Positions 11,564 through 21,918 of a DNA stretch of 53,150 nucleotides are shown here, piece by piece. A program made the translations under genes and the position numbers. How positions within the stretch are numbered: the stretch's first letter is position 1; each line of letters starts with the position of its first letter. This stretch comes from a virus (taxonomy: Duplodnaviria; Heunggongvirae; Uroviricota; Caudoviricetes), in IMG/VR virus record IMGVR_UViG_2537562195_000010, one strand, 5' to 3'. Under the pieces are notes generated by a model. The model was not told the DNA's origin and did not search any database. It saw only the letters and a list, made by a program, of their open reading frames with translations.

Positions 11564-11913
11564 TTAATCGTATCAAGCTGGAGCACATCCTCGAATATGC
11601 CAGGCAGCAGAGGCATATTGGTCAGCATTGTAAAATTCCACCAGGAGATATGGTTGAAATCATGGAGATTGCCATGCGCAAGGCTGGCAATTCTCCGGTA
11701 ACTCCGGATGGTTGGATAAGCTGTAGTGAGCGAATGCCGCCAGTTGGTGTTGATGTACAACTGTTTGTGTCCTGCACGGGTGAACAGTTTACAGGTTTTA
11801 ACCTGGATAATACGGGTGACTTCCAGTATGCGCAGTGTTTCGGTGCGCCCATCGTGTGTGAAGCCACACACTGGATGCCGCTACCAGAACCGCCGAAGGA
11901 GGTGCGCCAATGA
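11560..11913 (+). CDS. DUF551 family phage protein
   Basis: C-terminal 'GWISCSERMPP...HWMPLPEPPKE' matches the DUF551 signature (W...E.LP ... WMPLPEPP). Confidence 0.6.
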   Translation: MINRIKLEHILEYARQQRHIGQHCKIPPGDMVEIMEIAMRKAGNSPVTPDGWISCSERMPPVGVDVQLFVSCTGEQFTGFNLDNTGDFQYAQCFGAPIVCEATHWMPLPEPPKEVRQ

Positions 11914-11993
11914 GCTGGCCTGAAGCCTTCTCAAATGTTGGTATTGCAATGGCGGTGGCGCTGGTTGTGTATTCGATTTGCCGCTGGGGATAA
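11910..11993 (+). CDS. Small hydrophobic peptide (27 aa), translationally coupled
   Basis: 'MSWPEAFSNVGIAMAVALVVYSICRWG'; ATG overlaps the DUF551 stop (ATGA); AAGGAGG 7 nt upstream; followed by a terminator. Below the 60-aa ORF-track threshold. Confidence 0.3.
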   Translation: MSWPEAFSNVGIAMAVALVVYSICRWG

Positions 11994-12006
11994 ATTGCTG
12001 AAAAAA

Positions 12007-12042
12007 GATCCCGACACACACATGAGTCGGGATCTTTGATTT
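12007..12042 (+). terminator. Rho-independent terminator
   Basis: Hairpin 'GATCCCGAC-(loop)-GTCGGGATC' followed by 'TTTGATTT'. Confidence 0.6.
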
Positions 12043-12117
12043 ATATATCCTACGAATCCGCCAGTAAGAGAGGGGGCGGACGGTTTATTCTAATACTGGA
12101 ATTATGTGGGGAAAAGT

Positions 12118-12417
12118 TTATAAGAAATCGGTTTCATAACTTTGTCCGCCATGATAAATACCTGCGATAAAGACTTTATTGCCATCAACGGCAAAAGCAA
12201 TAATCGTTCTGTGGCGGAAGTGAGTTACCCGCATTCCCTGTCGAATATCATCGCGTTTATTGCCCCGATGCGGGAATGTGGAAAACCCATCAAGATAATC
12301 AAGAAGTGCATTGGCATAATTGTCAGCAATGACGCTCCCTGCTTTCTCCGTTATATATCTGTGCAGGTTGATTATCTGCTGTTCGGCCTCAGGAGTAATG
12401 ATGACTTCATATGTCAT
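12118..12417 (-). CDS. ParE/RelE-superfamily toxin (type II TA toxin)
   Basis: 99 aa from 'MTYEVIITPEAEQQI...'; size, sequence character and position directly after a ParD-like gene fit ParE-family toxins. Confidence 0.7.
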   Translation of the reverse strand: MTYEVIITPEAEQQIINLHRYITEKAGSVIADNYANALLDYLDGFSTFPHRGNKRDDIRQGMRVTHFRHRTIIAFAVDGNKVFIAGIYHGGQSYETDFL

Positions 12418-12422
12418 GCAGA

Positions 12423-12680
12423 TTACTTCCCGGCTCGAATCGCGGCGCGAACCTGTGCAATGGAGCGTCCGTTGTTTGGGTTTTCGCGGATAGAATCGAG
12501 AGATGGGGCGGCTGAATGCGTTAACCACGCTTCGATTGCTTTATCGCGCTCATTCAGTGCGCGAAGCCCTTCACGAATGACCTCACTTTCTGAAGCATAG
12601 GCACCGGAAGCCACACGGGCGCGCACCATGTCAGCCATCTCGTTAGTTAATGTAACGCTGAATTGTTGGGTTGTACGCAT
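12423..12680 (-). CDS. ParD-like RHH antitoxin
   Basis: 85 aa from 'MRTTQQFSVTLTNEMADMVRARVASGAYASESEVIREGLRAL'; ribbon-helix-helix antitoxin pattern; 5-nt gap to the toxin gene. Confidence 0.7.
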   Translation of the reverse strand: MRTTQQFSVTLTNEMADMVRARVASGAYASESEVIREGLRALNERDKAIEAWLTHSAAPSLDSIRENPNNGRSIAQVRAAIRAGK

Positions 12681-12761
12681 GGTAAACCTCACGGAGTAGG
12701 ATAGAACACTATTCGATGATAGCACGCTTCCTGTTGACGACAACAGAAATCAGAGACAATA

Positions 12762-13094
12762 TTGCCGCACGCCAGCCTGAACAACTGGCACCTGCTGCGC
12801 CAGCAGAGACAACCGATGGCGCACGATACCAAATTACACAATTCGGATAACTCCGCCGCCCCTGCCAGCAGGCACGGGCGGCGTTCTCATGCATTCAAAT
12901 CTGACTGGTTCCAGCATGACCCATGCACTGAAGAACAGGCCGAATGGCTGATCCAGTGCTACCGCAGACGTGGTTACGAGTTTCAGAAAGATCTCAGCTT
13001 CGATCGTCGTCACTGGATAATCTCCGTCAGGCTCCCTTATTCCGAACGCCCACCGCGTCCGTCCCGCACATTCCAGCAGCGCATCTGGAGGTAA
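12762..13094 (+). CDS. Hypothetical protein (weak call)
   Basis: 110 aa ORF between the TA pair and the DUF968 gene; start codon uncertain (TTG at 12762 or ATG at 12816). Confidence 0.3.
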   Translation: MPHASLNNWHLLRQQRQPMAHDTKLHNSDNSAAPASRHGRRSHAFKSDWFQHDPCTEEQAEWLIQCYRRRGYEFQKDLSFDRRHWIISVRLPYSERPPRPSRTFQQRIWR

Positions 13095-17766: not shown

Positions 17767-17842
17767 GGCCCTTTAGCTCAGTGGTGAGAGCGAGCGACTC
17801 ATAATCGCCAGGTCGCTGGTTCAAATCCAGCAAGGGCCACCA
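17767..17842 (+). tRNA. tRNA with CAU anticodon (Met or lysidine-modified Ile2)
   Basis: Hand-folded cloverleaf: acceptor GGCCCTT/AAGGGCC, D-arm GCTC...GAGC, anticodon loop CTCATAA, T-arm GCTGG-TTCAAAT-CCAGC, encoded CCA. Confidence 0.85.
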
Positions 17843-17850
17843 TATCCATA

Positions 17851-17927
17851 CCGCCATTAGCTCATCGGGATAGAGCGCCAGCCTTCGAAGCTGGCTGCGC
17901 GGGGTTCGAGTCCTCGATGGCGGTCCA
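17851..17927 (+). tRNA. tRNA-Arg (anticodon UCG)
   Basis: Hand-folded cloverleaf: acceptor CCGCCAT/ATGGCGG, anticodon stem CCAGC/GCTGG with loop CTTCGAA, T-loop TTCGAGT, encoded CCA. Confidence 0.85.
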
Positions 17928-18700: not shown

Positions 18701-18950
18701 GTGTTAAATCCCTCACAATTCAGTAAGTTGACAGTTGCCTGTCAGACTGAGCATTTGTTAAAAAAATTTCGCATGGTGAATCCCCCTGTGCGGAGGGGCG
18801 ACTGGTGAACGGTATGATCTCTTTGATGATCGTAAGCGAGAATACGCGGGTTTGGTGTCACCGGGCTGAACTCACCGGGAGGCACCCGGCACCATGCTCA
18901 TGGTGATACAGAAATGCGGCTTCAGCCCCTCTCCGGAGGGGCTTTCTTAT
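18701..18950 (+). repeat. Structured repeat unit A (family of five; possible sRNA gene or promoter-terminator cassette)
   Basis: Contains the conserved blocks 'GTTAAATCCCTCACA', 'TTGTTAAAAAAA', hairpin 'GGTGAATCCCCCTGTGCGGAGGGGC', hairpin 'CACCGGGAGGCACCCGGCACC' and terminator 'GCCCCTC-TCCG-GAGGGGC-TTTCTT' (18925-18948). Confidence 0.7.
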
Positions 18951-19110
18951 GGACAAAAAAAGCCCGCGCTGGGAGACGCGGGCGGCAAGGAATAAACAAT
19001 AAAACGTGAAGTAATACTTCAACTGGCGAATAATACCCGACAGTAATCACTCTGCGCAATAGCGTGGCCTTTTTCGAATTGCGGGCTGTAGTCTCCCTTC
19101 TGCTGGGTGT

Positions 19111-20671: not shown

Positions 20672-20907
20672 ATGTTAAATGACTCACAATTCGGTTGATG
20701 GGCTATTGTCTGATCGATGGAAGTCTTGTAAAAACGAGCCAGCATAGTGAATCCCCCTGTGCGGAGGGGCGTCTGACATGGTCTCCATAGCGATGGTCAC
20801 AATACGCAGATTCAGTAGTCAGGCTGAATCTACCGGGAGGCACCCGGCACTATGCTGCTTATGGTGTATACATAGCGATCGGCCCCTCTCCGGAGGGGCT
20901 TTTTTTG
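20672..20907 (+). repeat. Structured repeat unit B
   Basis: Same conserved blocks as unit A ('GTTAAATGACTCACA', 'AGTGAATCCCCCTGTGCGGAGGGGC', 'TACCGGGAGGCACCCGGCAC', terminator 'GGCCCCTCTCCGGAGGGGCTTTTTTT'). Confidence 0.7.
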
Positions 20908-20929
20908 TGCGGGAAAAGGCTGTGTTGTT

Positions 20930-21175
20930 AAGTGTTAAATTCCTCACAGTTCAGATGGTTGATGCTTGCCTGTCTGAGGGGGAGTTGTTAAAAAAGTTCT
21001 GCATGGTGAATCCCCCTGTGCGGAGGGGCGACTGGTATGATTTGCATCTTTTCTGTTGTAGGCAATGCAAACGCGGGTTCAGGGACACCAGACTGGACTC
21101 ACCGGGAGGCACCCGGCACCATGTTCATGATGATACAGATACGCAGTGTCAGCCCCTCTCCTGAGGGGCTTTTTT
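20930..21175 (+). repeat. Structured repeat unit C
   Basis: Same conserved blocks; terminator 'AGCCCCTCTCCTGAGGGGCTTTTTT' at 21151-21175; variable central segment. Confidence 0.7.
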
Positions 21176-21202
21176 ATGCAGGAAAAACGCTGTGTTGTGA
21201 AA

Positions 21203-21436
21203 TGTTAAATTCCTCACAGTTCAGATGGTTGATGCTTGCCTGTCTTACGGGGAGTTGTTAAAAAAGTTCTGCATGGTGAATCCCCCTGAGCGGAGGGGCA
21301 TATCAGCGCAGGTGTTTCTACTCTATCCTTTCTGTGCGGGTTCAGGTGCTGATACTGAACTCACCGGGAGGCACCCGGCATCATGCATATGGTTAACAGA
21401 CAAGTAGCGAAGCCCCTCTCCGGAGGGGCTTTTTTA
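21203..21436 (+). repeat. Structured repeat unit D
   Basis: Same conserved blocks; terminator at 21411-21436. Confidence 0.7.
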
Positions 21437-21462
21437 TGCAGGGAAAAGGCTGTGTTGTGAAA

Positions 21463-21690
21463 TGTTAAATTCCTCACAATTCATGAGGTTGATGATTGTC
21501 TGATTGATGAGGAGTTTGTTAAAAAAAACGGGCATGGTGAATCCCCCTGTGCGGAGGGGTGATATCGTATCATTTCCTGTGTGGCCGACTGATATCACGG
21601 ACATTTGTTCACCGGGAGGCACCCGGCACCATGCAGTATACAGAGATTAGGCATACATCCAGGCTCCTCATCGCAGGAGCCTTTTTACAT
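21463..21690 (+). repeat. Structured repeat unit E
   Basis: Same conserved 5' blocks; central segment forms its own inverted repeat ('GTGATATCG...CGACTGATATCAC'); different terminator hairpin 'GGCTCCT-CATCGC-AGGAGCC-TTTTTA'. Confidence 0.65.
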
Positions 21691-21918
21691 GTAAAAAAAA
21701 CCGCTCCTGGGAAGAGCGGTTGGCAAGGAAGCAAGGAATAAATAACAAAACGTGAAGTAATTTATTCAGCACCCTAATAATACCTTAGAGTAATCACCTT
21801 GCGCAACTGTAAGGGCGTATTTCTTTTTTGCGGGCTGTTTTTCTGTGTGACTTTTGTGTTTCCGGAGGTCAGCCCGTGCCTTCTCTGACTCAGAACATTA
21901 TCCCGGCCGGGAGGATTC

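Follow-up and report, generated by a model that had tools for sequence, protein, structure and literature searches.

A ParD/ParE-type toxin-antitoxin module antisense to the early-right operon of a lambda-like Escherichia coli prophage

Classical ParDE systems have been described from RK2, Caulobacter (ParDE1; 3KXE), Mesorhizobium (ParDE3; 5CEG and 6X0A), M. tuberculosis (ParDE1; 8C24), Vibrio (ParDE2; 7R5A) and P. aeruginosa (6XRW), and in these systems the gene for a ribbon-helix-helix (RHH) antitoxin is followed by that for a ParE-fold toxin. A ParE-fold toxin is also encoded by a lambdoid prophage of E. coli, the cryptic prophage CP-933P of O157:H7, as part of PaaR2-PaaA2-ParE2 (5CW7/5CZF), a three-component system in which a short antitoxin without a DNA-binding domain is accompanied by a separate regulator. 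The named pair that is closest to the one described here is KluA/KluB of the IncP-1beta plasmid R751 (NC_001735.4, 8601-9181), for which no functional study was found in the literature searched. Gyrase inhibition is documented for the ParE toxins of RK2, Vibrio and M. tuberculosis, while a Yersinia ParE causes DNA compaction with an SOS response (summarized in PMC10203498). Among toxins encoded by prophages, ParESO/CopASO of the Shewanella prophage CP4So and PfiT/PfiA of the Pseudomonas prophage Pf4 function in the maintenance or production of their prophages (PMC8706911; PMC13048266), the CP4So system being a ParE-type toxin-antitoxin (TA) system that maintains its prophage (PMC8706911).

The window, which is the whole stretch of DNA that was analyzed (53,150 nucleotides), contains a pair of genes for which a ParD/ParE-type assignment at 12118-12680 had been proposed in a first-pass annotation. 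This span proved exact to the base, its ends being the stop codon of parE (12118) and the ATG of parD (12680), and the pair consists of the following features.

12423-12680, minus strand: parD, antitoxin of 85 amino acids (open reading frame and translation; RefSeq WP_001260982.1)
ParD residues 1-51: RHH DNA-binding domain, on the basis of profile matches
ParD residues 52-85: presumed toxin-binding tail
12118-12417, minus strand: parE, ParE-class toxin of the RelE/ParE fold, 99 amino acids (RefSeq WP_000220602.1)

The two genes are codirectional, with parD upstream and parE downstream and a gap of 5 nt (TCTGC) between them. Neither the open reading frames nor the RefSeq annotation of the locus revealed a third codirectional gene in the unit. 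The flanking genes lie on the plus strand in the order DUF551 gene, [parDE], hypothetical gene, DUF968, RusA and Q, which bears out the earlier placement of the pair on the opposite strand, next to the DUF968 gene and within a nin-like region. The prophage is a lambda-like one of E. coli, in which the pair is antisense to the early-right operon and occupies a position between the genes for replication and Q.

KluA is 53% identical to ParD over its full length and KluB is 47% identical to ParE; the order is again antitoxin followed by toxin, the sizes are similar (89 and 104 amino acids for KluA and KluB versus 85 and 99 for ParD and ParE) and the RefSeq family names are identical. The two pairs differ in that the KluAB genes overlap by 4 nt, instead of being separated by 5 nt, and are plasmid borne, whereas the lineage of the window was found only in lambdoid prophages. 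The best profile and fold matches for both proteins are with the classical ParDE systems, and hence the expected mechanism is one of autorepression, C-terminal neutralization and gyrase poisoning. However, ParE of the window is only 13 to 24% identical to the biochemically characterized ParE toxins and, unlike the classical systems, the pair is part of an integrated lambdoid prophage, where it runs antisense to the early-right genes. The ParE2 toxin of CP-933P has a similar fold (TMq of about 0.8) but an identity of only 17 to 18%, and a three-component Paa-type system was rejected because ParD has its own RHH domain and the unit has no third gene. PfiT is among the top fold matches (16% identity) and, like ParESO, is a ParE-type toxin encoded by a prophage, as here; the antitoxins of these two systems differ from ParD, one being of the CopA type and the other, PfiA, having a different DNA-binding domain, and the CP4So and Pf4 phage types are distinct from the lambdoid prophage of the window.

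Family assignment and conservation of the pair

The N terminus of ParD, which the first-pass annotation had described as an RHH antitoxin, is of the ParD ribbon-helix-helix type by curated cutoffs. Matches to residues 6 to 51 were obtained with both PF03693 (E = 1.6e-7; 32 bits, with a cutoff of 21) and TIGR02606 (E = 8.9e-15; 54.5 bits, with a cutoff of 46.2), and the protein was also matched by PHROG 6494 ("antitoxin"; E = 8e-56). The relatives of ParD in the PDB sequence set are the ParD antitoxins of ParDE complexes (3kxe_C, 7ycv, 6x0a_a, 7b22 and 8c24_C). The dN/dS ratio of the N-terminal half is 0 to 0.15, and not above 0.04 between alleles with enough synonymous divergence, while that of the C-terminal half is 0.2 to 0.5 between intact cassettes.

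ParE matched the full profile of PF05016 (ParE_toxin; E = 5.8e-10; 40 bits, with a cutoff of 23) and also PHROG 5232 ("toxin"; E = 1e-42). E values as low as those of the two PHROG matches are well outside chance expectation. TA profile searches, named beforehand as a check on the pair, were therefore passed by both proteins with Pfam and the PHROGs and by ParD with TIGR02606. In NCBIfam, no specific or equivalog model was passed by ParE and no RelE model was matched. As Pfam and RefSeq lump RelE with ParE, the class of the toxin was tested directly. The AlphaFold2 model, for which 24 members of the family were used, had a mean pLDDT of 88.7 and consisted of a long N-terminal hairpin of two helices (residues 9 to 26 and 28 to 46) and three long antiparallel strands, with the last seven residues of the C terminus at low confidence. 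In a Foldseek search of the PDB, the best 22 matches were all of the ParE class (TMq of 0.74 to 0.83) and included Mesorhizobium ParE3, M. tuberculosis ParE1, PfiT, PrpT, Caulobacter ParE1, Vibrio ParE2, P. aeruginosa ParE and O157 ParE2. RelE, YoeB, HigB and YafQ ranked below all of the ParE-class structures, with TMq values of no more than 0.66. Similarly, a search of the PDB sequence set with a profile of the toxin family detected ParE-class chains only, even at E values of up to 10. The RelE/ParE fold that had been proposed for the toxin is consequently upheld by the model, the Foldseek ranking and PF05016, and the fold ranking and profile search led us to assign the protein to the ParE class and not to that of RelE, YoeB or HigB. 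Membership of the family suggests that gyrase would be the target.

The TA interpretation of these genes is already public, since RefSeq, the PHROGs and a GenBank record for a Stx2a phage carry the same reading. The 1-kb region around the pair is 100% identical to E. coli EH41 (NZ_CP045213), where it is located in a lambdoid prophage adjoining ompW and where the RefSeq names are "type II toxin-antitoxin system ParD family antitoxin" and "RelE/ParE family toxin." The record for Stx2a phage ArgO145 contains the cassette at 94.8% identity and annotates putative toxin and antitoxin components. The pair has thus been correctly interpreted and annotated before and is not new, and no experimental work on it was found in the literature searched (by RefSeq accession, by ParDE, prophage and Stx, and by KluA/KluB). 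The toxin gene was detected in 328 of 5,426 complete E. coli genomes (∼6%), always in the chromosome, and every match covered at least 80% of the gene; among the toxin gene matches listed, 30 of 30 were annotated as a toxin coding sequence. In the same survey the antitoxin gene was present in 365 genomes. When the alleles of the window and ArgO145 were compared, the toxin had a dN/dS ratio of 0.09 and the antitoxin one of 0.19. Purifying selection acts on both genes, strongly so on the toxin, and the core toxin motif is invariant across homologues from E. coli, Salmonella, Yersinia, Enterobacter, Erwinia and Desulfovibrio.

Two other views of what the pair encodes have to be set against these results. 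If the toxin were a ribosome-dependent mRNA endonuclease of the RelE/YoeB/HigB type, it would arrest translation in the manner of Qin relBE; both PF05016 and the RefSeq name span the whole RelE/ParE superfamily, the invariant residues R51, R55, R59, R63, H66, R68, H69, R70 and H89 together with a C-terminal Tyr have a superficially RNase-like appearance, and M. tuberculosis RelE structures occupy ranks 23 and 24 of the fold search. These structures nevertheless follow an unbroken series of 22 ParE-class matches, the family profile found no other class of PDB chain, and the partner is a ParD-type RHH antitoxin (TIGR02606) that matches the ParD chains of ParDE complexes. The RelE-type RNase reading was rejected because the fold ranking and the profile search both favor the ParE class, and we regard it as very unlikely. 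Still less likely, to the extent that we give it hardly any weight, is that the pair is an inactive or decaying remnant without effect on the host. Many chromosomal TA toxins are weakly toxic or nontoxic, and the toxin has no NCBIfam equivalog model, but purifying selection on the toxin is evidence against a decaying remnant, as are its near-full-length state in all 328 carrier genomes, the uniform annotation of the listed matches as toxin coding sequences and the invariance of the core motif across the homologues. Furthermore, where the toxin has been lost, there has been a clean removal instead of decay.

Control elements of the unit

Candidate control elements were found on both sides of the gene pair.

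12716-12743, minus strand: candidate sigma-70 promoter of parDE, with −35 element TTGTCG (12743-12738), a 16-nt spacer and extended −10 element TGcTATCAT (12724-12716)
12690-12687, minus strand: Shine-Dalgarno sequence GAGG of parD, 6 nt 5′ of the ATG
12728-12749: candidate ParD operator 1, an imperfect palindrome (TTCCTGTTG-acga-CAACAGAAA) that overlaps the −35 element, from an inverted-repeat search
12699-12714, minus strand: candidate operator 2 or leader element GAATAGTGTTCTATCC, between the −10 element and the Shine-Dalgarno sequence
12004-12037: candidate bidirectional hairpin terminator between parE and a convergent small open reading frame on the plus strand, with 15-nt arms that are 93% complementary

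The promoter was listed by a consensus scan in which the number of sites in the region was not above the scan's own shuffle expectation. Evidence for its function comes from conservation, as the −10 element (TGCTAT or TGCTAA) and an upstream GTCGTCAA block are kept in E. coli, Salmonella and Yersinia cassettes even though the coding DNA of these has diverged, to ∼70% protein identity. This cross-genus conservation suggests that the site is the parDE promoter. The core of the palindrome, GTTGTCGTCAAC, exhibited no more than one substitution across seven aligned cassette alleles, and the leader element GAATAGTGTTCTATCC was almost invariant in the cassettes of the three genera and better conserved than the coding sequence. 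Binding of ParD to the palindrome would be expected from the known autoregulation of RHH antitoxins, and the candidacy of the palindrome and leader as ParD operators is in keeping with how extremely well the RHH half of the protein is conserved. In the region 12728-12763, the palindrome contains −35-like hexamers not only for the minus-strand parDE promoter but also for a promoter-like site on the plus strand (12734-12763). The latter site is directed toward DUF968-RusA-Q, with the elements TTGACG and AATATT separated by an 18-nt spacer. Control of rightward transcription by ParD through this site is not claimed, the scan count being at the chance level.

The hairpin downstream of parE was detected by the inverted-repeat search and was not listed by a simple terminator scan. 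Reading on the minus strand, the hairpin is followed by UUUUUU, and the minus-strand RNA has a predicted folding energy of −23.4 kcal/mol (z = −3.5 relative to shuffled sequences). The hairpin is kept in ArgO145 and in one further locus (L006). As it sits between parE and the convergent small open reading frame, it probably terminates transcription in both directions. An Rfam search detected no known RNA in or adjoining the cassette.

Positions of the cassette in lambdoid prophages

The block that is common to the window and ArgO145 extends over positions 11910-12763 of the window (854 bp) at 93% identity, and in ArgO145 this block is located near the integrase and antirepressor genes, outside the nin-like region. 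Homologues in Salmonella (72 to 74% identity) are found just downstream of Q in lambdoid prophages, while those of Yersinia (70% identity) occupy the early-left region of lambdoid prophages; the Salmonella and Yersinia cassettes have an 85-amino-acid ParD and a 5-nt gap throughout. At every locus examined, the flanking phage genes and parDE were on opposite strands. The lineage is thus mobile between prophage positions as a self-contained unit and, in the collections searched, it was confined to lambdoid prophages of the Enterobacterales. A tblastn search of PLSDB detected plasmid relatives at no more than 53% identity, with the exception of one record. A plasmid origin was rejected, as this sole closer match, an E. 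coli record of 1.4 Mb, is evidently from a chromosome.

The first-pass annotation had stated that Qin-type prophages carry relBE and hok in this neighborhood, and this was correct, since relB-relE-hokD-rem are directly upstream of ydfU in Qin of K-12 and YdfU is 85% identical to the DUF968 protein of the window. Matches to the flanks of the slot were found in 4,841 E. coli genomes, and a prophage of O157:H7 strain TR01 with the same DUF551 and DUF968 flanks has hokD in the slot. The relBE-hokD genes of Qin and the hokD genes of O157 prophages therefore share the neighborhood of parDE, upstream of the DUF968-Q module, but belong to families that are unrelated to ParDE and have different mechanisms, RelE being an mRNase and Hok a type I membrane toxin. 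In addition, Qin relBE is codirectional with ydfU, whereas parDE of the window is antisense. The region upstream of DUF968-RusA-Q is thus a recurrent slot for TA cargo of unrelated families (parDE, hokD and relBE-hokD). The small gene between parD and DUF968 was considered as a homologue of Rem, but no similarity to Rem was found and this candidate was rejected.

Several other observations were made in these prophages. Cargo of an exclusion or defense type is present near parDE in Salmonella and Yersinia prophages (locus L010, 2871-3395; locus L012, 9091-10119; locus L011, 7969-8463) and comprises a SocA/Panacea-domain protein, a eukaryotic-type protein kinase adjoining the repressor, SieB and Ail/Lom. 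An unannotated small open reading frame on the plus strand (11910-11993) forms the left end of the block common to the window and ArgO145. It encodes a hydrophobic product of 27 amino acids (MSWPEAFSNVGIAMAVALVVYSICRWG), and its start codon overlaps the DUF551 stop codon (ATGA). At the protein level, homologues of this product (55 to 89% identity) were found in 90 phage records, mostly of lambdoid and Stx phages. The differences between alleles are mainly synonymous or conservative, and this open reading frame is therefore probably a real gene for a small membrane protein.

On the other side of the pair, a GC-rich hairpin with 13-bp arms (CGCCGCCCCTGCC and GGCACGGGCGGCG; 12854-12883) lies inside the gene for a "hypothetical protein" at 12816-13094. 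PHROG 1212 covers only residues 27 to 92 of the product, so the true start of this gene may be further downstream. More distantly, five copies of the Rfam sRNA family STnc100 (119 to 172 bits) were detected on the plus strand at 18742-18954 and 20713-21692; four of these are in tandem, in a 1.8-kb stretch without RefSeq annotation. The copies are downstream of Q, a DNA methylase gene and two tRNA genes (17767-17924), which we take to be the position at which Stx phages carry stx.

Role of the module and the orphan antitoxin of O157 Stx2a phages

We estimate a probability of about 0.8 that the pair is a canonical two-component type II ParD/ParE module carried as an autonomous, lysogen-expressed unit of prophage cargo (a "moron"). 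By analogy with the family, a ParD dimer would bind the conserved palindrome and leader through its RHH domain and repress its own promoter, while the C-terminal tail would wrap and neutralize ParE. ParD would be turned over by host proteases, such that arrest of ParD synthesis would leave free ParE, and the free toxin would poison DNA gyrase, resulting in DNA damage, an SOS response and growth arrest or death. The module would then select against loss or deletion of the prophage segment, an addiction effect like that of ParESO/CopASO of CP4So. The likeliest role, judging from these related systems, would be this selection against loss of the segment, and the module may have an effect on phage-phage competition as well. 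It is less evident what an integrated prophage, as opposed to a plasmid, would gain from stabilization by a TA system. Since parDE and the early-right operon are on opposite strands, a collision between antiterminated lytic transcription and the expression of parDE is to be expected, and on this basis one could speculate that release of the toxin is linked to induction.

An alternative is that the main role is one of antiphage defense or interphage competition, with an infecting phage shutting off host transcription or triggering decay of ParD such that ParE aborts the infection. The cassette is always prophage borne and the variable slot holds other TA genes in related prophages (hokD in O157 TR01 and relBE-hokD in Qin), some Salmonella and Yersinia cassettes have SieB, Ail/Lom, protein kinase and Panacea-domain genes nearby as lysogenic conversion or exclusion cargo, and an orphan cognate antitoxin in O157 Stx2a phages is what counterdefense would be expected to look like. 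Orphan antitoxins acting in counterdefense are documented for DarTG1 (PMC11825919). However, a scan with PADLOC-DB v2 yielded no match for ParE and only a chance-level match of ParD to LmuB (E = 0.053), and a catalogued defense system was rejected because no model matched either protein; no report of phage defense mediated by ParDE was found in the literature searched; and the orphan parD may be a mere remnant that now drives a downstream lipoprotein gene. Abortive infection or phage competition is the weaker explanation, and we consider it unlikely as the main role, in comparison with selection against prophage loss.

The orphan antitoxin is a more interesting side observation than the TA pair itself. 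In 45 Stx2a phage records and in 37 genomes of E. coli (O157), parD has been retained together with its promoter (∼87% identity), and the genome counts (365 with parD minus 328 with parE) imply that these 37 genomes are without a copy of parE. In the record examined (LC727840.1, 2194-2860; locus L002), in which the orphan parD is at 2520-2777, parE breaks off after codon 5, such that MAYEVPH* remains, and has been replaced by a 93-amino-acid lipoprotein-like open reading frame and a HigA-like HTH open reading frame. The C-terminal half of the orphan ParD has a dN/dS ratio of 0.24 to 0.31, which is no higher than the 0.2 to 0.5 detected between intact cassettes. This ratio does not discriminate for or against relaxed selection on the orphan. 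Orphan ParD and HigA antitoxins have been reported in Stx phages phi346 and phi349, with their role left open (PMC12502783). The cognate system from which this orphan derives is present intact in the window. The orphan may be a counterdefense or antiaddiction factor or just a retained regulator of the new cargo.

These observations can be combined in a broader proposal, to which we attach a rather low probability. There would be an exchangeable TA slot at DUF968-Q and at other lambdoid positions, the prophage-restricted ParDE would participate in phage-phage conflict, and the orphan ParD would provide antiaddiction or counterdefense on entry into hosts with a parDE prophage. With parDE always on the strand opposite to that of the lytic operons, ParD would run short upon lytic read-through or superinfection, and ParE would be released.

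As a TA pair, parDE is ordinary in kind and adds little, since the family has been studied very well and this member of it was already annotated correctly. There is modest value in the finding that a ParDE lineage moves between lambdoid prophage positions as a self-contained unit and in the demonstration that the region upstream of DUF968-Q is a recurrent TA cargo slot. As ParE toxins are DNA damaging and SOS inducing, a prophage-borne ParE in STEC backgrounds could bear on prophage induction. No classical type II antitoxin is yet known to act in phage counterdefense (PMC12502783), and a counterdefense function of the orphan ParD, if true, would be the first such case. Identification of the intact cognate system makes the counterdefense or antiaddiction hypothesis for the orphan directly testable.
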